A stretch of DNA of 30,253 nt from Chloroflexota bacterium (GTDB taxonomy: Bacteria > Chloroflexota > UBA11872 > UBA12225). The position numbers were made by a program, and so were the translations under genes. The stretch is from the NCBI GenBank assembly GCA_016199265.1, contig JACQGX010000284.1, positions 1 to 30,253 of the forward strand, given 5' to 3'. The first letter of the stretch is position 1. Each line of letters opens with the position of its first letter. The notes beneath the pieces were generated by a model. The model ran no database searches. It was not told the origin of the DNA and was given only the letters and a program-made list of their open reading frames with translations. Positions 137 to 23,478 of the stretch are shown here, one piece after another.

Positions 137-240
137 GGACGAAGGACGAAGGACGAAGCAGGTGGTCTGTGGACCATTACTTCGTGGCTTGTCTGCTTGG
201 TCGTTCGTCTGCTTCGTCCTTCGTCCTTCTTCTGCTTCGC
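137..240. repeat. GGACGAA-heptamer palindromic element. Left arm (GGACGAA)x3-GCAG, right arm CTGC-(TTCGTCC)x2-TTC, about 45-nt loop. Intergenic.
   Basis: Arms at 137-161 and 209-229 are reverse complements. Sits between the stop of the propeller gene (240) and the start of the partial gene at 119. Confidence 0.8.
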
Positions 241-1325
241 TATACCGTCGCAACGTACACCTGTGGATGGCCGGTGGCATCGGAGGTGTAGACGACGCGG
301 GCGCCATCGGGGCTGTAGGATGGGTGAGGGTGGGTCCACTGGGGACCATAAGCAGCCTCGGGCGTGGGGCCGTCCCAAATGGGTTCGGGTAGCGCCCACT
401 GGTAGCCCTGGCAGGAGGCACGCGGCTGGCAGAGCGTGCGGCGGGCGCCGGTGCGGGGATCGATGAGGACGAGGCCAACATCGGGCAGCGCCGTGTCGCA
501 GACGATCAGCCCTCCATCCGGGCGCGGCGCCGGGTGCCAGCAGTTGAACGCGGCGACGGCGCGGTCGCCGGTGCCGTCGCGCCGGATAGACCGGAGCGCG
601 TGCGGCCAATGGGTGTAGATGATCTCGTCGTCGTTCAGCCAGCTCTCGTGCGTGAGCCACTCGCGGCGTGTCTGGCCGCGGAGCGGGTGCGGATCGGTCC
701 CGTCGCGGTTCACCAGCCACAGACGGGGCAGATCGCTCGAGAACAAGATCTGGCGACCATTGGGGCTGAACTGCGCGTGGCCGACGAAGCGTTCGGTCTC
801 GTATGCGGTGCGGACGCCCGACCCGTCGGTGCGGATGGCGAGCAGCGCGTTGCGCCGGCCGTGCGTGCTGCTCTCGCCGCTGAACGCCGACGTGACGAGC
901 TCGGCACCGTCGGGGCTGAGGCTGCCGGTGTCGACGTGAGCATCGCCGGGGCAGACCGCGACGGTTGAGCGATACGCCGTGGCCACTTCGACGGCGCGCA
1001 GCTCGCGTCCGGCGCCGTAGAACACATGGCTGCCGTCGCGGCCGACGCACGCCGACCAGGGGTTCACCTCTCCGGTGTCGGTGAGCTGTAGCAACTCGCC
1101 CGAGGCCTCGTCGACCGCATACAGGTTGGCGCGCCCGCCGTCGCGGTACGACGTGACGATCAGACACGACTCGCCGCCGCGGCCGCGAGGGAACGCCCAC
1201 GCCTGGTTGAGGAAGTAGGGTGCGTGATTGATGCATGGCGTGTTGGTGAGCTGCACGATGGCGGTGCCGGTCTCCGGCTCGACCCACGCGCGCCGCTCGG
1301 GCGGAAAGCGATCGCCTGCGCTCAT
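240..1325 (-). CDS. Beta-propeller protein with PD40/WD40-like repeats (TolB-like / oligogalacturonate-lyase-like fold).
   Basis: 361-aa ORF with recurring SPDG/SPNG/YSPDG blade motifs and high codon-usage regularity. TAG stop at 240-242 directly abuts a palindromic repeat element. Confidence 0.6.
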   Translation of the reverse strand: MSAGDRFPPERRAWVEPETGTAIVQLTNTPCINHAPYFLNQAWAFPRGRGGESCLIVTSYRDGGRANLYAVDEASGELLQLTDTGEVNPWSACVGRDGSHVFYGAGRELRAVEVATAYRSTVAVCPGDAHVDTGSLSPDGAELVTSAFSGESSTHGRRNALLAIRTDGSGVRTAYETERFVGHAQFSPNGRQILFSSDLPRLWLVNRDGTDPHPLRGQTRREWLTHESWLNDDEIIYTHWPHALRSIRRDGTGDRAVAAFNCWHPAPRPDGGLIVCDTALPDVGLVLIDPRTGARRTLCQPRASCQGYQWALPEPIWDGPTPEAAYGPQWTHPHPSYSPDGARVVYTSDATGHPQVYVATV

Positions 1326-1469
1326 AAGTACGGTTACACCTCGGCGGACTGCTGCAGATGATACGCAAGCCGGCGTGGGGTGCGGGCAAAAGTTCCGGAG
1401 GCGTCAATGTCCTGTCGACTACCGGCAGACCGGGAGCTAACAGTGCCTCACAACCCCACCGCTCACGCT

Positions 1470-1501
1470 GAGCCTGTCGAAGGGCGCCCTTCGACAGGCT
1501 C
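1470..1501. terminator. 32-bp perfect palindrome GAGCCTGTCGAAGGGC/GCCCTTCGACAGGCTC, 35 nt downstream of the pcm stop. Probable pcm terminator hairpin, no U-tract.
   Basis: Read directly. Shares the 9-mer GCCTGTCGRAG with the terminal repeats of the 4066-4203 element. Confidence 0.45.
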
Positions 1502-1535
1502 AGGGCGAGCGGACTTCTGTGAGACGTTCCAAATG

Positions 1536-2207
1536 CTAGTCTGCCTCCGCCGAGTATCCGTACTTGCCGTAGAGCCTCACGAAGTACGCTTCCACGACTG
1601 TGCGGCGGCGGATCAACCCCTGCGGCCCCTTTTCGAACAGCACGACGTCCTCGGCACCCCCCGGCCCGATCGGCTGGACGAGCCGGCCGCCGGGAGCGAG
1701 TTGCTCCACCAGCGGCGGCGGTACCTGCGGGAACGCCGCCGCCACGACGATCGCGTCAAACGGCGCGTGCTCGGGCAGCCCCTCGGTCCCGTCGCCTACG
1801 ACCACCTCGACGTTGGCGATGTCGTGCCGGGCCAGGTTGGCCGTGGCGGCCGCGGCGATGTCCGGCCAGCGCTCGATGCTCCAGACGAACCGCGCCAGCC
1901 GGGCCAGCAGCGCCGTCTGGAAGCCGTAGCCCGTGCCCACCTCCAGCACCTGCTCCGCTCCGGTGAGCCCCAGGGCCTCAATCATCTTGGCCACCAGCGA
2001 CGGTTGGGTCGTGACCTGCCCGTGCGGGATGCGCACCGGCTGGTCGAGGGAGGCCTGCACGGCGACCTCCGGCGGGACGAACCCCGCACGCGGCACCGCG
2101 CGAAAGGCCTGCAGCACGCGCGGGTCGCGTACCCCCGCAACTATGACCGCCCTGACGAGGTCTTCCTGCCGGCTAGACAGATTGGGCCGATTGCGCCGTT
2201 CCATCAC
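1536..2207 (-). CDS. pcm: Protein-L-isoaspartate O-methyltransferase
   Basis: VLEVGTGYGFQTALLA SAM-binding motif. Overall PIMT-like sequence (GQVTTQPSLVAKMIEAL...). 223 aa. Confidence 0.9.
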   Translation of the reverse strand: MMERRNRPNLSSRQEDLVRAVIVAGVRDPRVLQAFRAVPRAGFVPPEVAVQASLDQPVRIPHGQVTTQPSLVAKMIEALGLTGAEQVLEVGTGYGFQTALLARLARFVWSIERWPDIAAAATANLARHDIANVEVVVGDGTEGLPEHAPFDAIVVAAAFPQVPPPLVEQLAPGGRLVQPIGPGGAEDVVLFEKGPQGLIRRRTVVEAYFVRLYGKYGYSAEAD

Positions 2208-2242
2208 ACCCAGTATGTAGCAACCCGCGCACCGCGCTGCAC

Positions 2243-2317
2243 TAAACCAAAGCCACAGTGGGACCCACAGGCCTCCTCACTTTGCACTTTGCACTTTGCA
2301 TTTTGCACTTGGTTTAG
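2243..2317 (-). repeat. GTGCAAA-heptamer element, copy 1 (family consensus 5'-CTAAACCAAG-(TGCAAAR)x3-4-GTGAGG-[about 20 nt variable]-GGCTTTGGTTTAG-3').
   Basis: Reverse complement is near-identical to the copies at 6737-6805 and 8674-8742. 11-nt terminal inverted repeats CTAAACCAARG. Lies between the selA-like stop and the pcm start. Confidence 0.9.
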
Positions 2318-2330
2318 CCGGCTGCTTCTC

Positions 2331-3485
2331 TCAGACCGCCGCGAGGGCCGGTTGACGCGCGGCCTGCGCCAGTACGTGCCGCAGCCGGGCCGCTACCTGT
2401 TCGGCTTCGCCGGGCTCGAGGTTGTGAGGGTTAATGGTGACCGAGTCGCGGGAGTGGGCGACGGCGATGGGTGGATCGCCATCGCGAAGCCGGGCGGCGA
2501 GCTCGGGTGCGGTGAGGCCGGCGCGTGCGGGGTCGACGGTGAGCCTGGCCTGGGGAATGGTGCGCGCGATGATGCGTTCGGCGGCGACGCCGTCGAGGCC
2601 GCGCACGGCGTCGAGGACAGTCTGCGCGCAGGCGTCCCAGTAGCGCAGGTCGGCGGCGTGGTCGCGGCTGACGTAGAGCTCGACGGCTTTGAGCAGGCCG
2701 GCTATCTCTTCCTTGCCGACCTTCATGGGACGCCCCATCGAGGCGTTCGGGTTGGTGTTTAGGCGGCAGGCTTTGATCAGCTCCGCTTTGCCGAGGATCA
2801 GGCCCGACGACTGCGGGCCGCGCAGGCCCTTGCCGCCGGAGAAGACGACGAGGTCGGCGCCGAGCTCGCTGAACGTTCGTAGATTTCCGGGCGGCGGGAG
2901 CTCGGCGGCGGCGTCGACGATCACCGGCACGCCGCGTTCGTGGGCGATCTCGACAACTTCCGCCAGACTGGTGCCGGTCGGGAAGCGCGCGTTTCCCGGC
3001 AGCTCGCCGCCGCAGAAGGTGACGGCCACGGTACGCTCTGCGATCGCGGCTCTGAATTCGTCGGGTGTGGCGCCGGCTGGGCCGCCGATGTCGACGAGCC
3101 GCGGGCCGGCATTGCGGTAGCCCTGAGCGTAGCCGGTGACATGCGTCTTCTGGATGACGATCTCGTCCTTCGCGCCCGGCCAGTCGAGGTGCGGCAGCGC
3201 CCGAATCCTCTGGGGATCGGTCCCGGCGACGCACGCGGCGGTCGAGATGGCCAGCCCGGCGGCGGCGCCGCACACCATCGCGGCGTCCTCGATGGCGGGC
3301 GAACCGAGCAACTGGGCGACCTTCCGTCCGGCCGCGCGATGGAGCTCCGGCAGCTCGACGTAATTGCCGCCCGCGCGCCGCATCACCTCGAGCACTTCGG
3401 GAGGCATGAGGCTGCCGCCGAGCCGAGTCTTCATCCCATCGGCGTTGATGACGGTTCGTAGGCCGAGCTCTTGGTACGGGTTCAT
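2331..3485 (-). CDS. SelA-like PLP-dependent enzyme (L-seryl-tRNA(Sec) selenium transferase-related family). Probable start is the internal ATG (MNPYQELG...) with GAGAGGTG RBS; the track ORF extends to 3521.
   Basis: FSGGKGLRGPQSSGLILGK resembles the SelA PLP-lysine region (SGDKLLGGPQAG). Fold-type I PLP enzyme length. Confidence 0.7.
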   Translation of the reverse strand: MNPYQELGLRTVINADGMKTRLGGSLMPPEVLEVMRRAGGNYVELPELHRAAGRKVAQLLGSPAIEDAAMVCGAAAGLAISTAACVAGTDPQRIRALPHLDWPGAKDEIVIQKTHVTGYAQGYRNAGPRLVDIGGPAGATPDEFRAAIAERTVAVTFCGGELPGNARFPTGTSLAEVVEIAHERGVPVIVDAAAELPPPGNLRTFSELGADLVVFSGGKGLRGPQSSGLILGKAELIKACRLNTNPNASMGRPMKVGKEEIAGLLKAVELYVSRDHAADLRYWDACAQTVLDAVRGLDGVAAERIIARTIPQARLTVDPARAGLTAPELAARLRDGDPPIAVAHSRDSVTINPHNLEPGEAEQVAARLRHVLAQAARQPALAAV

Positions 3486-3568
3486 AGGATCTTGCACCTC
3501 TCGTGTGTGTGCCCCCATCATAGGCGATCACAAGCGATATGGGATCCGCCCCGCCGCGTTACGGCGAC

Positions 3569-3598
3569 GCGAACGTTGAGGTTGGCGTTGAGGTTCGC
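3569..3598. promoter_or_regulatory. Direct repeat CGTTGAGGTT x2 (2-nt spacing) embedded in the inverted ends GCGAAC...GTTCGC, upstream of the lipoprotein gene. Candidate transcription-factor site.
   Basis: gcgaacgttgaggttggcgttgaggttcgc, in the divergent promoter region between the selA-like gene and gene 3604. Confidence 0.3.
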
Positions 3599-3603
3599 CC
3601 TCT

Positions 3604-4068
3604 ATGCTCGTGGCATCAGACATGGCACACTCGGTACTATCGACACGTCACGCGCTCCTGCGCCGCTTTATGGGCACGAGCGCGCTGGTATTTGCCTCGT
3701 GCGCGGCCGGCGAAGCCGCGCCCGCGCCAACGCCGACACCGGAACGGCGGCCCACGCCATCTCCGTATCAGGTTGAGGTGCGGATGCACCCCCAAGAGGC
3801 CAAGTACGGCAAGGACGAGCATGTGGTGATCCAGGCGCGCTTCACCAGGAACCGGCGCGGTGTGTCCGGGGCGCAGCTCTCGGCGACCGCGCACTACCCA
3901 GGCGGCCCGCAGACGTTTCGGTCCGAGATCACGACGTTCCCCGACGGTCGCGTCGACCTGGCGATCCCGGTAGAGCCGGCGAAGCCCGGCTCTACGGTGC
4001 CGGTGGAGGTGATCATGACCTACCGGGGCGAGGCGTACCGGGCCAAGAGCGGCTTTTCGGTGCGCTAG
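3604..4068 (+). CDS. Putative secreted lipoprotein, unknown function. Start may be the ATG at 3622.
   Basis: Signal peptide ending in lipobox LVFASC, followed by a Pro/Thr-rich linker. TAG stop at 4066-4068 is the first triplet of a palindromic element. Confidence 0.5.
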   Translation: MLVASDMAHSVLSTRHALLRRFMGTSALVFASCAAGEAAPAPTPTPERRPTPSPYQVEVRMHPQEAKYGKDEHVVIQARFTRNRRGVSGAQLSATAHYPGGPQTFRSEITTFPDGRVDLAIPVEPAKPGSTVPVEVIMTYRGEAYRAKSGFSVR

Positions 4069-4203
4069 CAGCCTGTCGGAGAGAACCATTTCGGTGAGCA
4101 ATCCGCCCTCGGGAAAGCCGTTTTGCGACGGAATGAGTACCCATTTCGCCCCACTTTCGGGGCCAAAACCGCCGGAAATGGAGCCAGGGACGTTTTCTCC
4201 GAC
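4066..4203. repeat. 137-bp palindromic element bounded by 18-20-bp terminal inverted repeats TAGCAGCCTGTCGGAGAGAA / TTCTCCGACAGGCTGCTA. A nested second inverted pair CCATTTCGG / CCGGAAATGG and internal GC hairpins. MITE-like or a structured RNA.
   Basis: The left TIR begins with the TAG stop of the lipoprotein gene. Located in the 234-nt spacer before the PRTase gene. Confidence 0.7.
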
Positions 4204-4302
4204 AGGCTGCTAGCACGCCGGTCGCGTTCGGTGGCACGGAGGCACTGCCGGCGGCACATATTCTGCCGTGACTCCGGTGGATAGACGGCATGGAGTTACG
4301 CT

Positions 4303-4995
4303 ATGAATTCGCGTTTCCGCGATCGATACGAAGCCGGCCGCGTGCTGGCCGAAGCGCTTTCGGAGTATGCCGGCCGGCAGGATGTGACCGTCCTGGCGTT
4401 GCCCCGCGGCGGCGTGCCGGTGGCCTACGAGGTGGCGCGCGCACTGCAGGCGCCGCTCGACGTCTTTTTGGTCCGCAAGCTCGGCGTACCGGGGCAGGAG
4501 GAGCTGGCGATGGGCGCCATCGCCACCGGGGGCGTCCGCGTGCTCAACGACGACGTCGTGCAGGCGCTGCGTATCCCCGATGACGTGCTCGACCGAGTCG
4601 CCGCCCGCGAGTCGCAGGAGCTGGCGCGGCGCGAGGTGGCGTATCGAGGCGACCGTCCGCTCCCGGACGTGCGCGACCGCACCGTAATCCTGGTCGACGA
4701 CGGTCTGGCGACCGGCTCGACGATGCGGGCCGCGGCCGCCGCGGTACGCCGCCTCGGACCTGCCCAGGTCGTCGTTGCCGTGCCGGTGGCATCGCGCGAC
4801 ACGTGCGAGGATTTCCGGCATGAGGTCGACAAGATCGTCTGCGCCGCGACGCCCGAGCCGTTTTTCGGTGTGGGGCTGTGGTACGAAGACTTCTCGCAAA
4901 CCACCGACGACGAGGTTCGCGACCTGCTCGCCCGCGCTGCCCGCGAGCACAAGTCGCGTGGTGAAACCGTCACGGCTGGTCGCCGAGCGGCGTAA
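4303..4995 (+). CDS. Phosphoribosyltransferase-domain protein
   Basis: PRPP-binding motif [21 protein letters not shown] 8 nt upstream of ATG. This family is commonly paired with a dienelactone hydrolase, and one follows here. Confidence 0.85.
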
Positions 4996-5149: not shown

Positions 5150-5842
5150 ATGAAGGACCGTGACAATCGGACGGTAGAAGAGCACGTGGTACACGTGTCC
5201 GTAGGACCCGTGACGCTCGAAGGCAACCTGGTCGTGCCGACAGGTGCCACGGGAGTGGCGCTGTTTGCGCACGGGAGCGGCAGCGGCCGGCACAGCCCGC
5301 GCAACCGCTTTGTCGCCGAAGTGCTGCAGCGGGGCGGGCTTGGCACGCTGCTGATCGATCTCCTAACGCGCCAGGAGGAAGCGGTCGATCTGCAAACGGG
5401 ACACTTGCGGTTTGATATCGGCCTGCTCGCCGAGCGGCTCGCAGGCGCCACCGACTGGCTCAAGCAGCACCCGCAGACCCGCAACTTGACGGTCGGGTAC
5501 TTTGGGGCAAGCACCGGCGGTGGAGCGGCGCTCGTCGCCGCGGCGGAGCGGCCCGACGTGGTCGGCGCCATCGTCTCACGCGGCGGCCGGCCGGACCTGG
5601 CGGGGCCCGCGCTGGCTCGCGTGCGCGCGCCGACGCTGCTGATCGTGGGCGGCCACGACTATCCGGTCATCCACATGAATCAGGAGGCGTACGATCAGCT
5701 TCGGTGTGAGAAGAAGCTGGAGATCGTTCCCGGTGCAACGCACCTGTTTGAGGAGCCGGGCGCGCTCGAGGAAGTGGCGCGGCTGGCGCGCGATTGGTTC
5801 CAGCGGTATCTGGTGCGGGCGGAGCGCGCGCGGGCGGCGTAG
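5150..5842 (+). CDS. Dienelactone hydrolase family alpha/beta hydrolase. The true start is the internal ATG (MKDRDNRTVEE...); the track ORF 4775..5842 over-extends upstream across the PRTase gene.
   Basis: GGGAGGA RBS about 11 nt upstream of the ATG at 5150. DLH-like motifs FAHGSGSG...GYFGASTGG...GGHD. Classic PRTase+DLH gene pair. Confidence 0.85.
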   Translation: MKDRDNRTVEEHVVHVSVGPVTLEGNLVVPTGATGVALFAHGSGSGRHSPRNRFVAEVLQRGGLGTLLIDLLTRQEEAVDLQTGHLRFDIGLLAERLAGATDWLKQHPQTRNLTVGYFGASTGGGAALVAAAERPDVVGAIVSRGGRPDLAGPALARVRAPTLLIVGGHDYPVIHMNQEAYDQLRCEKKLEIVPGATHLFEEPGALEEVARLARDWFQRYLVRAERARAA

Positions 5843-5982
5843 TGGAGTGCAAGGTGCAAAGTGAGACGAGGGGCGCATGACCACCGGTCATGCGCCCCTC
5901 GTGCTTCCAAACCAAAGCCGAGGTAGGACTCACAGGCGTCCTCACTTTGCACTTTGCACTTTGCACTCTGCACTTGGTTTAG
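5843..5982. repeat. Composite of two GTGCAAA-family elements. At 5843-5905, heptamers GTGCAAGGTGCAAAGTGAG plus a perfect 17-bp hairpin ACGAGGGGCGCATGACC/GGTCATGCGCCCCTCGT. At 5906-5982, a complete minus-orientation copy.
   Basis: Starts 1 nt after the TAG stop of the dienelactone hydrolase gene. The second unit ends with (TTTGCAC)x3...CTTGGTTTAG. Confidence 0.85.
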
Positions 5983-6736: not shown

Positions 6737-6805
6737 CTAAACCAAGTGCAAAGTGCAAAATGCAAAGTGAGGCAGCCTGCGCGTTCCACCTTGGCTTTGG
6801 TTTAG
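6737..6805 (+). repeat. GTGCAAA-heptamer element, copy 3 (plus orientation), between the two secreted-protein genes.
   Basis: CTAAACCAAGTGCAAAGTGCAAAATGCAAAGTGAGG...CCTTGGCTTTGGTTTAG. Followed by an AC-rich spacer and the RBS of gene 6838. Confidence 0.9.
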
Positions 6806-6837: not shown

Positions 6838-7461
6838 GTGAACCGCAACCCGCTTCGCACCACCGCCAGGATGCGCGTCGTCCTCGCCGCCGGCGGCCTC
6901 GTCGCCGCCTTCACCGGCCTCGCCGCGGCACCGGCGCTCGCCGCCGATCCGCAACCGATCCACGGCCACCAGATCCATGGTACGGTCAAGTCGGTCAACA
7001 CGGGCGCCAAGTCGTTCGTCGTCGACACGTCGACGCCCGACGACGTCAAACATGGCGATGTTACCGTCCAACTGCCGAACAACCTCTCGCGGCCGGGCAA
7101 GGCCGGCCAGCACGGCCAGGGCAAGGCGAAGTCGCACCTGGCCGCGTCGATCGACGACGTCAAGGTAGGCACCCGGGTCGTCGTACAGGGCACCCTCGAA
7201 AGCGGCAAGTTCAACGCGCGGCGCGTGCACGTCCTGCCAGCGAAGGAGATCACGCACGCCGTCGGCGAGGTGCAGTCGTATACCAACGGCACACTGACGG
7301 TCAAGCTGGCCGATAACTCCACCAAGACCTTCAAGGTAACGAGCGACACCAAGTTCCATCCGGAAGGCAAGTCGGCTGCCAACCTGACGCCGCCGGGCGC
7401 CAAGGTAACCGTCGTCGCGAAGGACGGCGAGGCGAAGAACATCGTCTTCCTAGCGTCGTAA
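6838..7461 (+). CDS. Secreted repeat protein (DUF5666-like beta-strand repeats), His-rich N-terminal region. GTG start.
   Basis: AGGAGG RBS 9 nt before the GTG at 6838. Signal peptide (AAPALA). Three internal repeats of pattern TVKSVNTGAKSFVVDT / TRVVVQGTLESGKF / GTLTVKLADNSTKTFKVT. HGHQIHG and GQHGQGK His motifs. Two hairpin terminators follow. Confidence 0.6.
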   Translation: MNRNPLRTTARMRVVLAAGGLVAAFTGLAAAPALAADPQPIHGHQIHGTVKSVNTGAKSFVVDTSTPDDVKHGDVTVQLPNNLSRPGKAGQHGQGKAKSHLAASIDDVKVGTRVVVQGTLESGKFNARRVHVLPAKEITHAVGEVQSYTNGTLTVKLADNSTKTFKVTSDTKFHPEGKSAANLTPPGAKVTVVAKDGEAKNIVFLAS

Positions 7462-8131: not shown

Positions 8132-8677
8132 ATGGACGGTGTCGTGCTCGAGCTCGTACGGATCGGACTGCGCACCGCGCACGCGCTGGCGGCGGTGCTG
8201 TGGGTCGGCGGCAGCCTATTCTTCGCGCTCGCCCTCATCCCAGCCCTGCGGCGCATCGGCGCTACCGCCGAACGGCTCGAGCTCGCGACGGCCGTTGGGC
8301 GCGAGTTCCGCCGGCTCGTGCGCGCCTCGATAGTGATCTTTCTCGTCACGGGGGCGATCCTTGCCTTCGACCGCTTGAGCCGGCCGGGCGTGCCCGCCCT
8401 CTACACGGCACTGCTCGGCGTCAAGATCGCCCTCGCGCTCTGGATGTTCTGGTTGGTGCGCGAGCGTGACGTGCCCGACCGTCCGGCGACGCTTGCCACG
8501 GCGACGGCACCTTCAGAGTCGGGCGCGGCCGCTGCATCCAGCGAAGCAAGCGCCTTGTGGCACCCGTGCATCCGGCGGCAGACGCTCCTGCTCACGCTGG
8601 GAATCGCCGTGTATCTGCTGGCGATCGTGCTCAGGGTGATCTTTGAAGCGGCGCAGGCAGCGCAGCCGCGTGTCTAA
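8132..8677 (+). CDS. CopD-family-like integral membrane protein (4 TM, short form); putative copper-handling membrane protein.
   Basis: TM1 motif RTAHALAAVLWVGGSLFF matches the CopD hallmark Hx6-7WxGG. Four predicted TM helices. TAA stop overlaps the left end of a palindromic repeat element. Confidence 0.45.
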   Translation: MDGVVLELVRIGLRTAHALAAVLWVGGSLFFALALIPALRRIGATAERLELATAVGREFRRLVRASIVIFLVTGAILAFDRLSRPGVPALYTALLGVKIALALWMFWLVRERDVPDRPATLATATAPSESGAAAASSEASALWHPCIRRQTLLLTLGIAVYLLAIVLRVIFEAAQAAQPRV

Positions 8678-8742
8678 ACCAAGTGCAAAATGCAAAGTGC
8701 AAAGTGAGGATCCCTGCGGGTCCCACTGTGGCTTTGGTTTAG
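8674..8742 (+). repeat. GTGCAAA-heptamer element, copy 4. Its first bases CTAAACC supply the TAA stop codon of the CopD-like gene.
   Basis: CTAAACCAAGTGCAAAATGCAAAGTGCAAAGTGAGGATCCCTGCGGGTCCCACTGTGGCTTTGGTTTAG. The interior is 90% identical to copy 1. Confidence 0.9.
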
Positions 8743-8754
8743 GTTTGGTTCAAG

Positions 8755-8796
8755 GTCCGAAGTCCGAAGTCCGAGGTCCAGAGTCGAGGGTCGACT
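8755..8796 (+). repeat. Tandem heptamer array (GTCCGAA)x3 decaying into GTCCAGA/GTCGAGG, immediately after copy 4.
   Basis: ggtccgaagtccgaagtccgaggtccagagtcgagggtcgac read directly. Confidence 0.8.
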
Positions 8797-8843
8797 GCTG
8801 CGTGCCGCCGCTTTGGACGGTGGACGTATGACTGTGGAACCGG

Positions 8844-10610
8844 TCAAGAGGGATCTCGGCGGATCACCCAGGCGCGATACTCGCCGAATCGGCCGGCCGG
8901 AGTGGTGCCGGCCGGGAGATGCGCCGCCACCTGCGCGTGGCGCGAGACGACAACGCCTACGGCCGGCACACCGGCCGGGCTTGGAAAACCGGTGATGCCA
9001 GGCGCCACGATAGTGGGTGCGATCAAGCGTTCGCTGTCGACGAAGTGCACCGGCGCCGCGTAGTACGCGACCTCGCGGTCGGCGGCGACGAGCTCGCCGC
9101 GCGCAGCCACCGAGCGCAGCCACGCCGCCGCCTCGAACTGGCCCGACGAGCCGTAGAAGTAGGTGGTCGACTCGACCGTCGCCGCTTGGCGCGCCGCGGC
9201 TGAGACGTTGGCGCCGAGCAACAACCCGACGGCGAGCGCTCCCGCCCGCGTTGGTCCGGCGAACCGCGCGAGCGCCAGGCAGCCGGCGGCCACCGCGAGC
9301 CAGGCGGCGAGCAGACGGAGGTCGGCGTGCCGGATGAGCGCGTCGGCGCCGGTGGCGGTGCCGGCAGCGAAACCCACCGCGATTCCGGCCGGCAGAAACC
9401 AATTGGTTTTGGCGAAGGACGAATAACGGTTGACGGAGGCTCCACCGACAGAAGCGCCAATTTCGTCCTTCGTCGTTCGGCCTTCGTTAAGAAGGCGGAT
9501 GGCGGTAGGTAAGGCCGCGTCGAGCCACCGCGCTGCCGCAACGCCCGCGACGGCGGCCGCGAGGGGGAGCACGCCGGCGTGGTACTTGGGAAACCCTGCC
9601 GCCATCTTGCTCAGGTAGACCGCCATCGTCACGGCCGTGACGAACAGCAGCGCCGCGGCCGGCTCATCGCGTCGCAGCGCCAGCGGCGCCGCGACGAGCA
9701 GGCCGACCAACAGCGGGTGCAGCCACTGCATGCTCCGCAACGCCGCGACGAGCGTACGCAGCGCCGCAAGCCCCACCCCGGCGGCCGGCCCGGTCGCCGC
9801 GTTCCCCGTCAGGCCGGCCGTGTCCAGCGCCTCGTACCAGACATCACGGAATGGCTGTACAGCGGGCAGGCCGGTGCCCCACGCCACGAGCAGCCACGAG
9901 ACCAATAACACCAGACTGCCGGCGATACACGCGACGGCGAGCCGCCGCGCTTGCGGCCGGCGCCGCTGCAGCGTCAGCCAGAGCACGAGCGCCGCGGCAA
10001 CGATGAGGGGGGTGGTGAGCTTGCACCAGAGAGCAAGGGCGAAGGCGGCGGACAGCGCGGCGCCCGACCTGAGCCGGCGCCCTCCGTCCTTCGTCCTTCG
10101 TCCTTCGTCTCTTCCGGTGCGCAGGGCGAGCCAGACGAAGGCTGCGGTGGCAGGCGCCAGGACGGTGCCGTCGATGTCGAGCAGGAGGGCGCTCTGGATG
10201 GCGTACGGCGACGTCGCCCAGAGGAGCGCCGCGAGGACGCCGGCGCGTGGGCCACCGGCGAACCGGCCGAGCGCCGCCGCGCCAGCCAGCGAGGCCAGAC
10301 CCGCCAGGACACCGAAAGCGCGCAGCGCGGCGTCACCCGCCCCGGCGACGCGCTGCCACGCCGCCAGCGCCAGCAGGTAGCCCGGCGGGTGGTAGAGCGC
10401 GTACTGCAGGCGCAGGCCGTGCTCCGGATTCCAGGGGTAGTCGGCAATGTACCCGCGGTCGTAGAGAAAACTGCCGCCCGCGATTGCCCGCGCGGCTTTG
10501 GCGAAGTCGACTTCGTCGTACGTCAGCGGGCGACCTATCTGTGACAGTGCTAGGACGAGATAGAGCGCCACCGCTGCCAGGAAGACCGCACCGGTGTAGG
10601 GGCGAAGCAT
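8844..10610 (-). CDS. GT-C fold glycosyltransferase of the ArnT / PMT (GT39/GT83) type. Polytopic membrane protein.
   Basis: About 14 hydrophobic helices. N-terminal loop motif YDEVDFAKAARAIAGG (the DE motif of ArnT/PMT_2 enzymes). Carries two in-frame insertions of GGACGAA-heptamer palindromic elements (see repeats). Confidence 0.7.
   Translation of the reverse strand: MLRPYTGAVFLAAVALYLVLALSQIGRPLTYDEVDFAKAARAIAGGSFLYDRGYIADYPWNPEHGLRLQYALYHPPGYLLALAAWQRVAGAGDAALRAFGVLAGLASLAGAAALGRFAGGPRAGVLAALLWATSPYAIQSALLLDIDGTVLAPATAAFVWLALRTGRDEGRRTKDGGRRLRSGAALSAAFALALWCKLTTPLIVAAALVLWLTLQRRRPQARRLAVACIAGSLVLLVSWLLVAWGTGLPAVQPFRDVWYEALDTAGLTGNAATGPAAGVGLAALRTLVAALRSMQWLHPLLVGLLVAAPLALRRDEPAAALLFVTAVTMAVYLSKMAAGFPKYHAGVLPLAAAVAGVAAARWLDAALPTAIRLLNEGRTTKDEIGASVGGASVNRYSSFAKTNWFLPAGIAVGFAAGTATGADALIRHADLRLLAAWLAVAAGCLALARFAGPTRAGALAVGLLLGANVSAAARQAATVESTTYFYGSSGQFEAAAWLRSVAARGELVAADREVAYYAAPVHFVDSERLIAPTIVAPGITGFPSPAGVPAVGVVVSRHAQVAAHLPAGTTPAGRFGEYRAWVIRRDPS
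9411..9492. repeat. GGACGAA-family palindromic element inserted in-frame in the glycosyltransferase gene. Encodes roughly NEGRTTKDEIGASVGGASVNRYSSFA.
   Basis: Arms GGCGAAGGACGAA ... TTCGTCCTTCGTCGTTCGGCCTTCG are inverted repeats. The 82-84-nt length preserves the reading frame of ORF 8844..10610. Confidence 0.75.
10037..10110. repeat. Second, partly degenerate GGACGAA-family element in-frame in the glycosyltransferase gene ((TCCTTCG)x3 arm with a weak GGGCGAAGGCGGCGGAC partner). Encodes ...DEGRRTKDGG....
   Basis: cctccgtccttcgtccttcgtccttcgtc at 10082-10110, with a partial inverted partner at 10037-10053. Confidence 0.6.
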
Positions 10611-10741: not shown

Positions 10742-12676
10742 CTACAGACCGCCGGCCGGGGACTCGGTTCGCAGCCAGGAGGCGGCGCCCATGACCACGG
10801 TGAGCAGGGACACGAGCACGGCGCCTTCCGGCTGGTTGCTCTGGTCGAGCGCCATTGCCCACAGGATCGCGCCGACTATCGACGCGATAAGCACAATGAC
10901 GGCCAGCGTCGAGTGGCCGTGTTGCACCAGCCAGCGGCGCACACCGATCGTGAACACGGCGGCGACCGCAAAGATCAACAGGAGCAGACGCAGGGCATCA
11001 TCGGCAACGAAGACGACTAGCGGCGCAAGCGCGACGAATGCCACTTCCAGCGGCAGAAAAGCGCGCGGTGGCGTTTCGCCGTCATCCGATCGCATCCCCG
11101 GCCGCAGCGCCCTCGCCACCTTGAAGATCCGCACAAACCGCAGCAACCGAAGCGCGCGCAGCGTCTTGAGCGATTGAAGATTGAGCGCGACCAACAACGT
11201 TGGCAGGATGGCTAGGAGATCGACGATCCCCCACGGGCCGAGCACGTACCTCCAGCGGCTCGCGGCGTATACGATGCTGAGCGCGTAGTCGGCAACGAAA
11301 CAGACGGCAACCGCGATCTCCAGCCAGAAGAAGAGATCTCCGTATGCCTCCAGCAGCGCGGCGTCGTGCTCTAGCAGCGTGACCACAACCGACACGACGA
11401 CCAACGTCACGACGACCTCGGTGAGCGTCGCGGCCTCCTGCGAACGCTGGTCGACGTATGCCTGCCTCAGCCAGCTCACCAGCTGCTGCTTCCATGTCGT
11501 GCGGGGCACCGCCGCCGCGACCGCCGGTTTTGGTGGCAGCGCGGGTGCCACCGGCGCCGGCGGCGGTTCGGCGATACCGGTCTTCTGAACAGGTGCCGGC
11601 CCTTGGGCGCCACCGGCCCCTCGATCGGATCGCGCCACGCTTCCCGCTGCAGCCGGGTCGGTAGCCTGCCGGACCGACGTATCGGGCGCGGTGGTCGTGG
11701 CTGCGGCAGCCGTGGTAGGTACCGTCGCCGCGCCGGCCGCGCCGGCCGCGCCGGTCGTCGCAGCCGCCGTGTTCGCCGCGACCGCCGGCGGCGCGGTCGC
11801 GGTAGGTGCGTCGGCGGTCGCCACCACAGGCGGCGCCGGTGCGGGTAATGGGGCAGCAGACGAAGGCGGCGGCGATGCCGGTGCCGCCGAAGCGTCAGGC
11901 AAGGTCAGGTGCAGCAGTTGGGTGTTGATTGTCGGTGCGGCCGCCGGCGCCGGAAAGTCTGGTGATGGCGCAAATGCCGGTGGCTCTGGAAACGCCGGCG
12001 CCGGCGAAAACAGCGGTGTCGTCCCAGGTTCGGGAGTCTCGCTCGAGACAGGAGCAGACCGACCGGCGATGGCGAGCGGCGCCGCCGGAAACACCGGCGG
12101 CGCGGCAAACTCTGGTGCCGCCGAAAACGCCGGAGCCTCCGGCGCAGCCGGGGACTCGACCGTCGCCAGCCGGATGCCGGCCGCGAGCCCGGCCACCACC
12201 GCCGGGTCGAGTGCCCTAGCCGGCGGCGCCGCCTCGGTCGAGGCCGCGCCTGCCGCCGGCCCGCCCAGCGCGAACCCGGCACGGCCGGCATGTCGTTGCG
12301 TCGCCGGACTCTCCCACGTAGGGATGAAGGGGACTGAGGCGCTCGCCGGGCCACCATTTCCCCTCTCGCCCGCGGGCGAGAGGGGGCCAGGGGATGAGGG
12401 GACGTTCGGCGCCGGTCGGGGTTCGACCGTCGCGCCGCAGCGGGTGCAGAACTTCGCCCCGGCGCGCGCCGGCGTGCCGCAAGCGGCACACCAATACTCG
12501 ACGACAGTAGCCGCGGCCGCACCGGCCGCATGCGCCGCAGTCGCCGGGGCCAGGGCCGCACCGCAGCGGGTGCAGAACTTCGCCCCGGCGCGCGCCGGCG
12601 TGCCGCACTTCAGACAGCGGCTCGTCGCGCCGTCTGGCGCAGTCTCGTGTGGTATGGCCTGCGGTACGGAAGTCAC
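10742..12676 (-). CDS. Membrane protein. N-terminal double zinc ribbon (2 x CxxC-x10-CxxC), roughly 300-aa Pro/Ala-rich low-complexity linker, C-terminal voltage-sensor-like ion_trans domain (S1-S4 plus 3-4 further TM). No recognisable K/Na/Ca selectivity filter.
   Basis: CLKCGTPARAGAKFCTRCGA and CAACGTPARAGAKFCTRCGA. S2 FFWLEIAVAVCFVADYAL, S3 WGIVDLLAILP, S4 LRALRLLRFVRIFKVARALRP with Arg at every third position. GTG start with GGAGG RBS. Confidence 0.7.
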   Translation of the reverse strand: MTSVPQAIPHETAPDGATSRCLKCGTPARAGAKFCTRCGAALAPATAAHAAGAAAATVVEYWCAACGTPARAGAKFCTRCGATVEPRPAPNVPSSPGPLSPAGERGNGGPASASVPFIPTWESPATQRHAGRAGFALGGPAAGAASTEAAPPARALDPAVVAGLAAGIRLATVESPAAPEAPAFSAAPEFAAPPVFPAAPLAIAGRSAPVSSETPEPGTTPLFSPAPAFPEPPAFAPSPDFPAPAAAPTINTQLLHLTLPDASAAPASPPPSSAAPLPAPAPPVVATADAPTATAPPAVAANTAAATTGAAGAAGAATVPTTAAAATTTAPDTSVRQATDPAAAGSVARSDRGAGGAQGPAPVQKTGIAEPPPAPVAPALPPKPAVAAAVPRTTWKQQLVSWLRQAYVDQRSQEAATLTEVVVTLVVVSVVVTLLEHDAALLEAYGDLFFWLEIAVAVCFVADYALSIVYAASRWRYVLGPWGIVDLLAILPTLLVALNLQSLKTLRALRLLRFVRIFKVARALRPGMRSDDGETPPRAFLPLEVAFVALAPLVVFVADDALRLLLLIFAVAAVFTIGVRRWLVQHGHSTLAVIVLIASIVGAILWAMALDQSNQPEGAVLVSLLTVVMGAASWLRTESPAGGL

Positions 12677-18411: not shown

Positions 18412-18664
18412 CGCCATCAATCACCACCAGCTCACGCGGGAACACCCAAACCGAAGAGGAGATCGGTCCTATTGAAGAGGCCCGGCGAGAAATGTGGTCG
18501 AATTTCCCGCGCGAGGACAGTGCATGATCACGGCCATCGCCGACACACACACCGCTCTGTGGCAAATTTCGGCGACCAGCGTCTGTCGCGGAGGGCCAAG
18601 CGTCACATCGACGGGGTTCTGCAGCCAATGACCAGGACAGCTTCTGCTGGTCGCCCGTCGTTGG

Positions 18665-19732: not shown

Positions 19733-19828
19733 CGCGCCCTCCTCATGCTTAGCATGCTGGATAGGACGCGGTTCGCGCAACCCGGCCCGTTGACCGAACC
19801 CGGTGCGCGGTGTGCTATAGTCAACGTG

Positions 19829-19858
19829 CGAGGCACCCCTCCCCCCGGGGGGAGGGGT
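19829..19858. promoter_or_regulatory. 30-bp perfect palindrome GGCACCCCTCCCCCC/GGGGGGAGGGGTGCC between divergent genes, immediately upstream of csoR. Candidate CsoR operator, overlapping a TGCTATAGT extended -10-like element.
   Basis: Known CsoR operators are GC-rich pseudo-palindromes with a C-tract/G-tract core. This one sits about 20 nt upstream of the csoR start and 10 nt downstream of TATAGT. Confidence 0.5.
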
Positions 19859-19877
19859 GCCCACGAGAGGGAGCCAT

Positions 19878-20174
19878 ATGCCATCGGCGCAGGGACGAAC
19901 GCAGATTGTGAATCGGTTGAAGAGCGTCGACGGCCATCTGCGCGGCGTGATCAAGATGGTCGAAGAAGACGCTTACTGCATCGACGTGATCCAGCAGTTG
20001 CGCGCCGTCCAGGCCGCGATCAATAGGGTCAACGCACTGCTCTTGGCCGACCACCTCGACACGTGCGTCACGACCGCGATCCGAAGCGACGAGCCGACCG
20101 AGCGCGAGCGTGTCATCGGCGAACTGCTCCGCGTCTTCGAACACGGTGCCGATGCAGCAGGCAGCAGGCAGTAG
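19878..20174 (+). CDS. csoR: CsoR/RcnR-family copper-sensing transcriptional repressor
   Basis: [43 protein letters not shown] matches the CsoR core, including the YC...H...C metal ligands (C..., H..., C in DTC). GAGAGGGAG RBS. Located directly upstream of copA. Confidence 0.85.
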
Positions 20175-20188
20175 GCAGCAGGCAGCGG
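20154..20188 (+). repeat. Tandem heptamer array GCAGCAG GCAGCAG GCAGTAG GCAGCAG GCAGCGG spanning the csoR stop codon and the copA start region.
   Basis: Read directly. The csoR TAG stop is the TAG inside the third unit. Confidence 0.85.
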
Positions 20189-20196
20189 CACGCGAC

Positions 20197-22860
20197 ATGA
20201 AGACACTCGATCACGCGGCACAGATGAACACCGCGACGGATACGGGCCAGCGCCAGACCGGCGCGAACGGCGCCGCCGAGCGTACAGCAGTCAGCGGCAG
20301 CGCCGCGCCGCCGGCGGCCGCCGAGCTTACCTTCCCCGTCACCGGCATGACGTGCGCCTCGTGCGTCCGGCGCATCGAACGCTCGCTCTCCAAGGTCGAA
20401 GGCGTTGTCGAGGCCAACGTGAACCTCGCCACCGAGCAGGCGACGGTTCGTTACGATCCCAGCGCCCCGACGCTCGCCGAGGCGCCGCCGATGGCCGTCT
20501 TCCGCGCCGCCGTCGAGCGCGCAGGATACGGCGTCCGTGAGACCGAGCCGGCCTCGCCCGCAGCGGGGGCGGCCATGATCGAAAGCTCGGAAGCGCGCGC
20601 GGCCGCGGACGAGCGGCGTGAGACCAGGACGGTGTTGGCCAAGACCGGCCTCTCGCTTGGCGTCGCCGCGATCATCATGGGGCTGATGTTTTTGCCGGCT
20701 CGCCTGATCGGCGTGCCGGCACTGCCGTGGAGCATGGAGCTGCTCAACTGGCTGTTCTTGGTCCTGGCGACGCCGGTGCAGTTCTGGGCCGGTTGGGATT
20801 TCTACCGCGCGACGTGGGCGGCCGCGAAACACGGCGCGACGAATATGAACACGCTCGTCGCCGTCGGCACGAGCGCCGCCTACGTCTACAGCGCCTTCGC
20901 CACATTCTTTCCGCAGGTGCTGGCCGGTGCCGGGATCATGCCCGAGACGTACTTCGACAGCTCGACGATCATCGTCGGCTTGATCCTGCTCGGTCGCTAC
21001 CTCGAGCATCGCGCGCGCGGCCAGACGAGCGCCGCGATCAAGAAGCTGATCGGGCTGCAACCCAAGACGGCCCAGGTGATCCGCAACGGCGAAGAACACG
21101 ACGTGCCGGTCGAAATGGTACAGATCGAGGACATTGTCCGCGTGCGCCCGGGCGAGAAGATCCCCGTCGACGGCGTCGTGCTCGAGGGCCGCTCGGCGGT
21201 CGACGAGAGTATGCTGACCGGCGAAAGCCTGCCGGTAGAGAAGGGGCCGGGCGATCAGGTGATCGGCGCCACGCTCAACGCCACCGGTGCGTTCACGTTC
21301 CGCGCGACACGCGTCGGTACCGACACGACGCTCGCGCAGATCGTGAAGCTGGTGCAGGAGGCGCAGGGCTCCAAAGCACCGATCCAGCGCCTCGCCGACC
21401 TGATCTCGTCGTACTTCGTACCGGTCGTTCTCGTCGTGTCCGCGTTCACGTTCGGCGTCTGGTACGTTTTCGGTCCGGAGCCGCAAGTCACCTTCGCGCT
21501 CACCACCTTCATCGCCGTCCTTATCATCGCCTGCCCGTGCGCGATGGGCCTGGCGACGCCCACCGCCATCATGGTCGGCACCGGCCAGGGCGCCGAGCAC
21601 GGCATCCTCATCCGCGGCGGCGAGGCGCTCGAGCAGGCGCACAAGGTGCGCGCGATCGTCCTCGACAAGACGGGGACGCTGACGCAGGGCAAACCGGCGC
21701 TGACGGACGTCAACTCAGTCCAAAGTCCAAAGTCCAAAGTCCAAAGTAATGGGCCATCCGGCTGGGGACTGGGGACCGGGGACCGGGGACTGCTGCGCCT
21801 CGTCGCCGCTGCCGAGCGGAACTCGGAGCATCCGGTGGCGGCGGCGATTGTGGAGGGGGCGCGGGCGCGCGGCGTCGAGCTTGTGGAGGCGGAACGATTC
21901 GAGTCGGTGACGGGGCGGGGCGTGGCTGCCGTCGTCGATGGGCATTTCGTGCTCGCGGGCAACCAGGCGCTCCTGGCCGATTACAGCGTCTCACTCGACG
22001 GGCTTGAGACGCAGGTAGCGGCGCTCGCACGGGAGGGCAAGACGCCGATCTACGTCGCCGTTGACGGCGCGGCGGCGGGCGTGCTGGCGGTCGCCGATAC
22101 GCTCAAGCCGACGTCGCCGCAGGCGGTGGCGCAGCTCGAAGCGCTCGGGCTCGAGGTCTGGATGCTCACCGGCGATAACCGGGCGACCGCCGAGGCGATC
22201 GCGCGGCAGGCCGGGATCGTACCCGAGCGCGTGCTCGCCGAGGTACTGCCCGATCAGAAGGCGGCGCAGGTCAAGGCGCTCCAAGCGCGCGGCCTGCCGA
22301 CCGCCATGGTCGGCGACGGCATCAACGACGCGCCGGCGCTGGCGCAGGCCGATCTGGGGATCGCCATCGGCACGGGGACGGATGTCGCCATGGAGGCGTC
22401 CGATGTCACGCTCGTCGGCGGCGATCTGCGGGGCGTCGTCGCGGCGATCGCCCTGTCGCGCCGGACGATCGACGTCATCCGCCAGAACCTGTTCTGGGCG
22501 TTCGCCTACAACGTCCTGCTCATCCCCGTCGCGATGGGCGCGCTCTACCCGTTTTTTGGCATGCTGCTGAACCCGGGATTGGCGGCCGGCGCGATGGCGC
22601 TCTCGAGCGTGTCGGTCGTTACCAACTCGCTCCGGCTCCGTGGCTTCCGGGTGCCGGATGATCCGCGCGATATTACACACCCACCGCTCGGCGCCCGCCT
22701 GCGCGAGTGGAGCTATCTCGCCGGAATCGCGGCCATCGCGCTCGCGCTCGGCGCGGCCATCATGTGGTGGTCGGCCGGCCGCGGCCCGGCGGACCAGGGC
22801 GAGCAGCAAATGGCGACAACTCAGGCCGATTCAACGCAACACAAAGGAGGCACACAATGA
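20197..22860 (+). CDS. copA: Copper-translocating P1B-type ATPase. Track ORF starts at GTG 20110; an ATG at 20152 is also possible.
   Basis: N-terminal HMA domain [13 protein letters not shown] motif [20 protein letters not shown] phosphorylation site. GDGINDAP hinge. Contains a 26-aa in-frame heptamer-repeat insertion after [16 protein letters not shown]. Confidence 0.95.
21718..21791 (+). repeat. Two adjacent tandem heptamer arrays inside the copA coding sequence: (GTCCAAA)x4 then (GGGGACY)x4. In-frame; encodes [25 protein letters not shown].
   Basis: Located right after the [16 protein letters not shown] phosphorylation loop. The equivalent linker in characterised CopA proteins is about 15 aa shorter. 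Confidence 0.85.
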
Positions 22861-23078
22861 GCAAGGTGGTTCTAGACGTTCCCGAGATCTCGTGCGCGCA
22901 CTGCTCGCAGGCGATCACGCAGGCGCTGCAGCCGCAGGCAGGCGTCGAGAAGGTACGAGTCGACGTGCCGAGCCGGAAGGTCTATCTCGACTACGACGAG
23001 AACACGATCTCCATCGACAAGGTGAAGGCGCTCCTCGCCGAGGAGGAGTATCCCGTCGCCAACATCAGCAACGCCTAA
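22857..23078 (+). CDS. copZ: Copper chaperone, heavy-metal-associated (HMA) domain protein (73 aa).
   Basis: ATGA start/stop overlap with copA. AAAGGAGG RBS. Metal-binding motif [11 protein letters not shown]. Strong hairpin terminator follows. Confidence 0.8.
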
Positions 23079-23105
23079 GGGCGAGTGCGGTAGGTCCGTC
23101 GCATC

Positions 23106-23160
23106 GCCGGGGGGAGCCACGGATTTCCGTGGCTCCCCCCGGCGTCTTGATTCTGACTTC
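23106..23160 (+). terminator. Rho-independent terminator after copZ. Stem GCCGGGGGGAGCCACGG, loop ATTT, CCGTGGCTCCCCCCGGC, then GTCTTGATTCTGACTTC.
   Basis: 17-bp perfect stem, tetraloop, T-rich tail. Confidence 0.8.
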
Positions 23161-23250
23161 TCCAGCCCAGCCATTGCGTGCGGCAGCCGCCGCGCCCTAT
23201 AATCTAGACGCAATTTGTTGTTGCTATTCATTCGCAATAGGGAGAAGGGA

Positions 23251-23442
23251 ATGGTCGCGAACTTCGCAACACGTACCGCCACCCGTACCGCCACGATCAG
23301 CATCAATCTCACCATTCAGGCCGTCGTCTTCCTCGCGATCGCCGGCCTGGTGCTCTGGACGATGCTGTTCACGCCGTACGCCAACGTACACGATGCGCTG
23401 CACGCGCTGCGTCACGCGCTCTACATCATCCCGTGCCATTAG
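23251..23442 (+). CDS. CbtB-like small membrane protein (single TM, C-terminal His/Cys metal-binding tail HDALHALRHALYIIPCH).
   Basis: AGGGAGAAGGGA RBS. One TM helix. C-terminal HDxxHxxRH....PCH resembles the CbtB family terminus. 63 aa. Confidence 0.45.
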   Translation: MVANFATRTATRTATISINLTIQAVVFLAIAGLVLWTMLFTPYANVHDALHALRHALYIIPCH

Positions 23443-23443
23443 G

Positions 23444-23478
23444 GCAGTAGGCAGTAAGCAGTAGCCGGTGGGCAGTTG
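23444..23478 (+). repeat. Tandem heptamer array GCAGTAG GCAGTAA GCAGTAG CCGGTGG GCAGTTG, starting 2 nt after the cbtB-like stop codon. Same GCAGYAG family as 20154-20188.
   Basis: Read directly. Confidence 0.8.

Follow-up and report, generated by a model that had tools for sequence, protein, structure and literature searches.

The window analysed here is the whole of contig JACQGX010000284.1, a 30,253-bp sequence from a metagenome-assembled genome (MAG) labelled "Chloroflexi bacterium", and its GC content stays at 65–70% throughout. A gene map drawn from open reading frames (ORFs), third-position GC and Pfam domains gave ordinary metabolic and transport genes, the products of which have their nearest named relatives in Thermomicrobiales, Chloroflexia and unclassified Chloroflexota MAGs. 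Between these genes, and inside two of them, a glycosyltransferase gene of family GT39 and the gene copA, lie short tandem arrays of 7-nt units, and these heptanucleotide arrays are the subject of this work. Scans of the window for tRNAs and for known RNA families in Rfam gave none, and neither a transposase nor a gene resembling RAYT (the tyrosine transposase associated with repetitive extragenic palindromic, or REP, sequences), nor any Y1-transposase domain, was found among the window proteins. The product of the PCMT ORF had no exact protein record, probably owing to a differing annotated start.

Arrays in the window were detected using Tandem Repeats Finder (TRF), motif searches and direct reading of the sequence. 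TRF returned 13 period-7 arrays, with 2.6–5.4 copies each. Exact arrays of at least three copies numbered five at period 7 and one at period 9, and the remaining periods between 4 and 15 had none. When runs of at least 12 consecutive matches were counted, seven were present at lag 7, compared with only 0–1 at the other periods from 4 to 12; 200 dinucleotide-preserving shuffles of the window averaged 0.01. A looser detector likewise found 13 period-7 arrays in the window (0.43 per kb) and 0–1 arrays at other periods. The same detector found eight period-7 arrays (0.015 per kb) in 535 kb of unrelated control CopA loci, mostly generic loci of ~50% identity among the matches listed in a metagenome scan with CopA P0043, and the density in the window is ~29 times that of this control. 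These results confirm that the period-7 feature is real and strongly non-random. An earlier note on this DNA had described several distinct heptamer families at very high density and had let that description stand or fall by a genome-wide excess of period 7 over other periods and over shuffled sequence; on the window, both the description and the excess hold. All of the arrays that it cited were found by TRF and in the sequence, exactly in place or a few bases off, and its five GTGCAAA elements were all located by motif search.

At least six unit types are spread over 23 kb (GGACGAA, GTGCAAA, GTCCGAA, AGTCCAA, GGGGACY and GCAGCAG/GGCAGTA), and nine of the 13 arrays are non-coding, with the other four in coding sequence. 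This one contig, therefore, combines tandem 7-nt units in three or more copies, a period-7 excess and several dispersed, mainly non-coding unit families, which are the characters of heptanucleotide simple sequence repeats (SSRs) and of short tandemly repeated repetitive (STRR) sequences. We also considered whether units free of stop triplets had been selected on both strands. This idea was dropped: 12 of the 13 units have no stop triplet in any of the six frames, a result that is not significant because about 74% would be expected at the GC content of the window.

Four of the GTGCAAA arrays sit in a 69–76-nt element with CTAAACC...GGTTTAG ends. Copy A (76 nt; 2242–2317, minus strand) holds a (CAAAGTG)4.7 array at 2278–2310, as delimited by TRF and by alignment of the four copies, and lies between the stop codon of gene 2331–3521 and the start of the PCMT gene (2207). 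Copy B (76 nt; 5907–5982, minus strand) holds the array at 5943–5975 and has one mutated terminal base (GGTTTGG). Copies C (69 nt; 6737–6805, array at 6744–6769) and D (69 nt; 8674–8742, array at 8681–8706), both on the plus strand, have one heptamer unit fewer than copies A and B, and the TAA in the left end of copy D serves as the stop codon (8675–8677) of gene 8132–8677. The four aligned copies are 83–92% identical, carry terminal inverted repeats (TIRs) of 9–10 nt and lie within 6.5 kb. In their C-TA...TA-G ends, the TA is compatible with a TA target duplication but could equally be part of the TIR. In its size, its TIRs and its multiple copies, the element looks like a small miniature inverted-repeat transposable element (MITE). 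A search of 185,579 species genomes with the TIR element pattern GCAAAGTGAGG-N18-22-GGCTTTGGTT gave 0 matches.

The remaining non-coding arrays are found mainly at gene ends. At 137–239 (no strand assigned), TRF delimited a palindromic heptamer pair, consisting of (GGACGAA)3.1 at 137–158 and a degenerate (TTCGTCC)n at 191–239. The pair occupies the spacer between two minus-strand genes, from the stop codon of gene 240–1325 to the ribosome-binding site and start (~119) of the one that follows. Its inverted arms at 138–161 and 209–232 are 96% complementary, and the DNA fold of region 125–245 reaches −30 kcal/mol (z = −7.3), with none of 200 shuffles equally stable. A short (GTGCAAR)2.4 array at 5843–5865 (plus strand) begins right after the TAG stop at 5840–5842 and is the inverted partner of the array in copy B at 5943–5975 (13/14 match). 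Between these two inverted arrays, 24 nt past the same stop, lies a perfect 17-bp GC-rich hairpin at 5866–5902, ACGAGGGGCGCATGACC-ACC-GGTCATGCGCCCCTCGT, with no T-run behind it.

A (GTCCGAA)3.6 array was found by TRF at 8755–8779 within an element at 8747–8833 (no strand assigned), and its inverted partner, TTTGGACGGTGGACG at 8812–8826, is weak, matching at only 10/14. Together with copy D of the MITE-like element, 8747–8833 fills the spacer of the convergent genes 8132–8677 and GT39. At 23443–23476 (plus strand), a degenerate (GGCAGTA)4.9 array with 74% matches directly follows the TAG stop (23440–23442) of a cbtB-like gene. Its units carry TAG or TAA internally, it has no inverted partner, and it folds no better than shuffles. 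In total, four arrays or elements touch or contain a stop codon, at 240–242, 5840–5842, 8675–8677 and 23440–23442, and in related loci some arrays contain the stop codon itself (a Thermomicrobiales MAG locus, L004, at 5037 and 9280; a Chloroflexia contig, L001, at 22799). The earlier statement that most arrays abut stop codons or start regions thus holds for these four but is too broad as worded, since another four are coding, with GT39 and CopA holding two each.

In GT39, a hairpin-forming heptamer element at 9408–9487 (minus strand) lies inside the PMT_2 coding sequence, with GAAGGACGAA at 9411–9420 opposite a (TTCGTCC)3.7 array delimited by TRF at 9462–9487. It encodes ...NEGRTTKDEIGASVGGASVNRYSSF... 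in a variable loop that is longer than in most homologues, and region 9395–9500 folds with z = −4.6, a stability reached by none of 200 shuffles. A second array in the same coding sequence, (CCTTCGT)4.7 at 10081–10114 (minus strand), encodes ...RDEGRRTKDGG... in another variable loop. The ORF is intact, and the PMT_2 domain runs through both arrays. Compared with the homologue in L094, the array at 9462–9487 adds 7 aa (RTTKDEI) to a native N-A-E-G; compared with that in L093 (R-E-D-G-G), the array at 10081–10114 consists of the native GACGGAG and three extra units, which add 21 nt and 7 aa (DEGRRTK). Both arrays, then, read as a native heptamer with three added units (+21 nt, +7 residues), as would be expected of birth in place.

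In copA (plus strand), the arrays stand at the 5′ end and in the middle of the gene. TRF found (GCAGCAG)5.4 at 20154–20190, with no inverted partner and a fold of z = −0.6. In the NCBI model, copA (902 aa) begins with the ATG at 20152, which renders this array as the N-terminus of the protein; translation may in truth begin from a second in-frame ATG, at 20197. Further downstream, two 31-nt arrays, (AGTCCAA)4.4 at 21717–21747 and (CTGGGGA)4.4 at 21762–21792, lie 14 nt apart and in frame. They fall between the DKTGT phosphorylation motif and SEHP, and the Pfam domains continue in frame; the DKTGT–SEHP loop is 57 aa long compared with 41 aa in most homologues. The two arms share only an AGTCC/GGACT core, and the fold is weak (z = −0.5). 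All four in-frame arrays, the two in GT39 and the two in this loop, encode 7-residue-periodic peptides. Of the three in-gene sites, two have the GGACGAA unit in common; they share nothing else and no common core.

The CopA loop is occupied in the same way elsewhere. In many Chloroflexota CopA homologues, the loop is longer and includes 7-residue-periodic peptides, such as QHSALST, encoded by (CAGCACT)3, and TDYGLRT, encoded by (ACGGACT)3. The DNA of the long loops shows heptamer arrays, which in most cases form an inverted pair on either side of a unique core. Among proteins that are 94–96% identical, the loop is empty (43 residues) in L085 and L088 and filled in L086, L087 and L003. The arms of the filled allele, (GTCGTGA)4 and (CTCACGA)4, are near-perfect complements. 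The left arm, (GTCGTGA)4 in L086 and L087, is (GTCGGCA)4 in L003, and a single GTCGGCG unit in L087 looks like an intermediate in a concerted replacement of units. Similarly, the internal CTACGGA unit is present in one copy in L086 and in four in L087 and L003. In L004, two tandem copA paralogues of 50% protein identity carry, at 3412–3684 and 7184–7420, a homologous heptamer-palindrome insert with the common core GGCGAGGCGG..AAC...CGGCCGGTACT, and the register of their arrays differs at identical positions of every unit. This arrangement suggests that the insert was transferred between the paralogues. At another locus, L056, a perfect inverted pair, (TGGAGAT)4.3 and (ATCTCCA)3, ~17 nt apart, stands just upstream of copA at 1652–1719, and the loop of that gene holds (GGTCAAC)4.7.

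These alignments show that arrays differ by whole units between orthologous or paralogous copies and that variant units spread through an array; the change in unit number is seen among element copies and orthologues. The arrays occupy the least-constrained sequence available: short spacers between genes, as far as the stop codon and even over it, the MITE-like element and variable surface loops of proteins.

How widely do the arrays occur? L004 (73% GC) has 11 arrays in 15 kb, and L001 (59% GC) has seven in 23 kb. The arrays of L002, an independent assembly of the organism of L001, are identical to those of L001, and an assembly artefact is thereby excluded. On the other hand, four Chloroflexota MAG loci with a GT39 orthologue, obtained in a species-genome scan with the GT39 alignment and 76 kb in total, contain no heptamer arrays, and the group of L085–L088 and L003 has them in the copA loop only and otherwise nearly none. 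The trait is therefore patchy within the phylum. It also reaches beyond it: a 4.5-kb Patescibacteria locus (L041, 44% GC) has three arrays within 1392–3024, one of them in the CopA loop, and several Patescibacteria CopA proteins (P0138, P0141, P0149 and P0153) have 7-residue-periodic loops, for example KLKTKSE-ELKTKSV-KLKTDKS.

Across the window, L001, L004 and L041, from 44% to 73% GC, the unit sequences vary at a fixed period. Among 53 period-7 arrays from the window and the other heptamer-bearing loci, 26 have four copies after rounding, nine have three and 11 have five, and most of the four-unit arrays are not G-rich. The class is thus defined by its period of 7 nt and its size (~3–5 units, mode four, ~30 nt), not by its unit sequence. 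An inverted partner matching at 12 or more of 14 positions lies within 130 nt of 21 of the 48 arrays in the heptamer-rich loci. This pairing and the four arrays in the TIR-bounded element bear out the link to palindromic elements drawn in the earlier note. The stronger idea that all arrays are hairpin arms was rejected, with a strong inverted partner for only 3 of 12 arrays in the window alone and for 21 of 48 overall, and with six of the ten regions tested folding no better than shuffles (z > −1.5).

G-quadruplex formation was likewise rejected as a general explanation because G-tracts occur in only one array; the other 12 window arrays have none. As the four-unit preference is independent of G content, it gives no evidence for G-quadruplex formation, and its presence in units unable to form such structures weakens the published G-quadruplex explanation. 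The one array concerned, (GGGGACY)4 at 21762–21792, is a canonical G-quadruplex motif on the sense strand, within the copA coding sequence.

The window contains other repeats as well. Two palindromes are built without heptamers, one at 1459–1512 (27-nt arms that are 93% complementary, no loop) and one at 4058–4220 (29-nt arms that are 90% complementary and separated by 105 nt). The presence of AGCCTGTCGRAG / CTYCGACAGGCT in both suggests that the intergenic spacers hold a second palindromic family, similar to REP. A 51-nt direct repeat, 98% identical, at 12431–12481 and 12557–12607 (126 nt apart), lies in a zinc-ribbon/ion-transport gene (10742–12676, minus strand) and is probably a recent internal duplication of a 42-residue module. 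In a dienelactone-hydrolase-like gene, a 39-nt tandem repeat at 5525–5607 (2.2 copies, 77% matches) is coding in frame and unrelated to the heptamers.

We think it probable that the arrays are heptanucleotide microsatellites of the STRR, or long-unit SSR, kind that expand in place by slippage. Arrays would be born and remodelled in place when strands slip and mispair in a 7-nt register as the DNA is replicated or repaired, and hairpin-forming sites would favour the slippage. Selection would act as a filter only, by which the frame is kept and stop triplets on the sense strand are barred inside genes, and arrays at gene ends would be free to grow up to or over the stop codon. Filled alleles might then spread between homologous genes by recombination via conserved flanks, such as DKTGT and SEHP; in the CopA loop, this would account for the filled/empty polymorphism, the insert in the paralogues and the recurrence at this site. 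A sequence-specific function would be unnecessary, and the hairpin pairs at gene ends might act incidentally as transcript-end structures.

Several observations weigh against expansion by slippage. Simple slippage predicts approximately geometric lengths, yet the mode is four units. Inverted arms match in unit count (31/31 nt in copA of the window; 4/4 units in L086), and the variant unit of L086 is mirrored on both arms. The filled CopA allele has 114–135 nt, including a non-repetitive core, for the ~33 nt of the empty allele, which looks more like insertion or allele replacement than pure expansion. The patchiness among related Chloroflexota is unlike what a universal property of polymerases would predict. 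Furthermore, the homologues behind the comparison with a native unit in GT39 are only 54–57% identical. Slippage leaves the register of seven, the four-unit mode and the arm symmetry unaccounted for, and these, together with the patchiness, leave some room for a dedicated lineage-specific generator or a mobile palindromic element.

Could the arrays be parts of small, non-autonomous mobile palindromic elements, of the kind of MITEs, hairpin-forming REP doublets (REPINs) or Rickettsia palindromic elements, moved by a transposase in trans or as filled alleles via recombination, with the heptamer runs as their arms and slippage only secondary? Such an origin would fit the CTAAACC...GGTTTAG family, with four copies in 6.5 kb, TIRs of 9–10 nt and TA-compatible ends. 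It would equally fit the CopA loop, where filled and empty forms coexist at 94–96% identity, the core of the filled form is unique, a homologous insert is present in two paralogues with just 50% identity, and the site is occupied in both Chloroflexota and Patescibacteria; the L085–L088/L003 group is otherwise poor in heptamers, and 21 of 48 arrays have inverted partners. However, beyond the one TIR family, the cores in the window share no sequence and the units vary by locus, the window proteins include no transposase or RAYT-like gene, and the TIR pattern had 0 matches in the 185,579 species genomes. The GT39 arrays, moreover, resemble expanded native codons, and several arrays are partnerless and fold no better than shuffles. 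On balance, we consider this origin rather unlikely.

We offer with still more reserve, as a speculation, that a dedicated, horizontally patchy activity measures length in a 7-nt register to about four units (~30 nt), often symmetrically on both arms of a hairpin, and that it also lies behind the cyanobacterial STRRs and the arrays of Xanthomonas, Nostoc and Patescibacteria. Candidates could be a lineage-specific polymerase, primase, repair enzyme or palindrome-processing enzyme. If this were true, the four-unit preference would reflect the enzyme and not G-quadruplex formation. The earlier note had already proposed a lineage-specific repeat-generating mechanism. That the trait is patchy among lineages is borne out, as this MAG, L004 and L001 are dense and 76 kb of four MAGs have no arrays; the lineage-specific process itself is a reasonable but unproven idea.

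A role as selected cis-acting elements appears improbable. The arrays would then be terminators or transcript-end hairpins, would stabilise mRNA, would form G-quadruplexes or would bind a protein that recognises 7-nt units, for example one with a cold-shock domain; CspB binds one heptamer per protein (PMC4679880), and regulatory effects of heptamers have been suggested in Nostoc (bioRxiv 10.1101/2022.06.06.494920). Arrays do lie directly against stop codons or a short way upstream of starts, and the hairpins at 125–245 and 9395–9500 are strong, but hairpins here lack a U-tract, the same structures lie within coding regions, where such roles are implausible, and unit sequences are not conserved across loci or lineages. 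The GGGGACY array is a canonical G-quadruplex motif, and both quadruplex formation and a four-unit preference have been reported (PMC4692102); in the window, only one of 13 arrays is capable of it, yet the four-unit mode is general. Six of ten regions fold no better than shuffles (z > −1.5), and there is no Rfam match.

It is very improbable that the arrays are contingency (phase-variation) loci, in which a change of one unit would shift the frame of copA or GT39, or alter the 5′ region of copA, and so switch expression. Seven is indeed not divisible by three, coding sequence and the start of copA do contain arrays, and two arrays per loop could offset each other's frameshift. On the other hand, every allele seen is in frame, here and in all homologues inspected, the genes are of the housekeeping type in a free-living bacterium, and the insertion of multiples of 21 nt indicates purifying selection on the frame rather than switching. 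Lastly, an artefact of short-read assembly or binning is scarcely credible: the contig comes from a MAG, and repeats are prone to mis-assembly, but the arrays are ~30 nt long, far below read length, the reading frames stay open, independent JGI and ENA assemblies have identical arrays, and this architecture is seen again in the assemblies of many projects.

Returning to slippage in place as the probable origin, the wider interest of the arrays lies in the cause of the overproduction of 7-nt repeats in bacteria, a question that has been open since 1990 and 2007. Patchiness within a phylum is what a phylogenetic-profiling hunt for a responsible gene requires, and palindromic pairing together with concerted unit replacement constrains the possible mechanisms. 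The arrays also call for caution in gene calling and alignment on MAGs, as they insert 7-residue-periodic peptides into conserved proteins and can supply stop codons and apparent N-termini.

Heterocystous cyanobacteria are said to carry the STRR heptamers described by Mazel et al. in 1990, and the GGGGACY array is presumably the complement of one of these, STRR1 (CCCCAGT). Heptanucleotide STRRs were first described in Calothrix, as cited in PMC4692102, and the function of heptamer repeats is still unsettled (bioRxiv 10.1101/2022.06.06.494920). With the cyanobacterial STRRs and the GGGGA(C/T)T repeats of Nostoc PCC 7120, the window shares several families of 7-nt units that are dispersed, mostly just outside genes, near or over stop codons and about four units long, and the unit of array 21762–21792, GGGGACY, is that of the G-rich Nostoc repeat (PMC4692102). 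Unlike these systems, the window belongs to Chloroflexota at 68% GC, most of its units are not G-rich and the other units are unrelated, about half of the arrays are palindrome arms (21/48), and four are in frame in genes.

The earlier note had regarded heptamers as classic to heterocystous cyanobacteria and unexpected at ~70% GC. This view was mistaken. As PMC4679880 and PMC4692102 summarise the 2007 survey by Mrazek, an excess of heptanucleotide SSRs is reported for Burkholderia, Actinobacteria and Xanthomonas, and SSRs with long units are said to be commoner in large genomes of >60% GC. Heptamer repeats are thus known from high-GC lineages, and the window therefore fits a known kind, for which high GC is not unusual. 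Mrazek's 2007 survey, as far as PMC4679880 relates it, found heptanucleotides to be the most abundant class of long SSRs in several high-GC lineages and proposed polymerase slippage, and the heptamers of Xanthomonas and Nostoc prefer four units and positions near stop codons (PMC4692102). As presented in these two sources, the long SSRs of Mrazek, Guo & Shah (2007) and the GGGAATC repeats of Xanthomonas share with our arrays the excess specific to period 7, the high-GC free-living hosts, the scattered phylogeny and the proposed slippage. The Chloroflexota and Patescibacteria hosts go beyond what the two sources report for long SSRs, and so do the pairing of arrays as palindromes, the replacement of units in concert and the CopA loop as a recurrent site.

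The TAACTGA repeats of marine Beggiatoaceae, some cyanobacteria and some Bacteroidetes are another parallel (PMC4679880). There, one unit dominates the genome in two to six copies, often beside start codons, with only one inverted set among 170 and a few reversed in ORFs, where they give heptapeptide repeats, and no transfer mechanism is known (PMC4679880). Like them, our arrays are intergenic heptamers of patchy taxonomy, some of which lie within ORFs. Unlike them, the window has many unit types and frequent inverted pairs.

MITEs with TA targets are derivatives of the IS630/Tc1 type of insertion sequence (IS), such as Correia elements. The CTAAACC...GGTTTAG element alone shares their small size, TIRs, several copies and TA at both ends; unlike them, it holds an internal heptamer array, the unit number of which varies among the four copies, and no parent IS was found in the window. 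Rickettsia palindromic elements, on which Ogata et al. are said to have reported in 2000, reportedly form hairpins, are tolerated in frame in genes and spread by transposition as sequence-conserved families. The window resembles them in its in-frame, hairpin-forming insertions at variable loops (CopA and GT39), with ORFs and domains intact, but its in-gene insertions are not copies of one conserved family, and their arms are built of 7-nt tandem units. REPINs are sequence-conserved inverted doublets in intergenic spacers, spread by RAYT (PMC3116915). Unlike REPs and REPINs, our arrays differ in arm sequence between loci, and there is no RAYT gene among the window proteins.

A full-text search for literature joining heptamer repeats with Chloroflexi, Chloroflexota, Thermomicrobium or Patescibacteria returned nothing relevant. 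Set against the cited literature, the lineages are new, and so are the frequency with which arrays pair as palindromes, the replacement of units in concert, a mode of four units in the absence of G-tracts and the repeated use of the CopA loop as an in-frame site.

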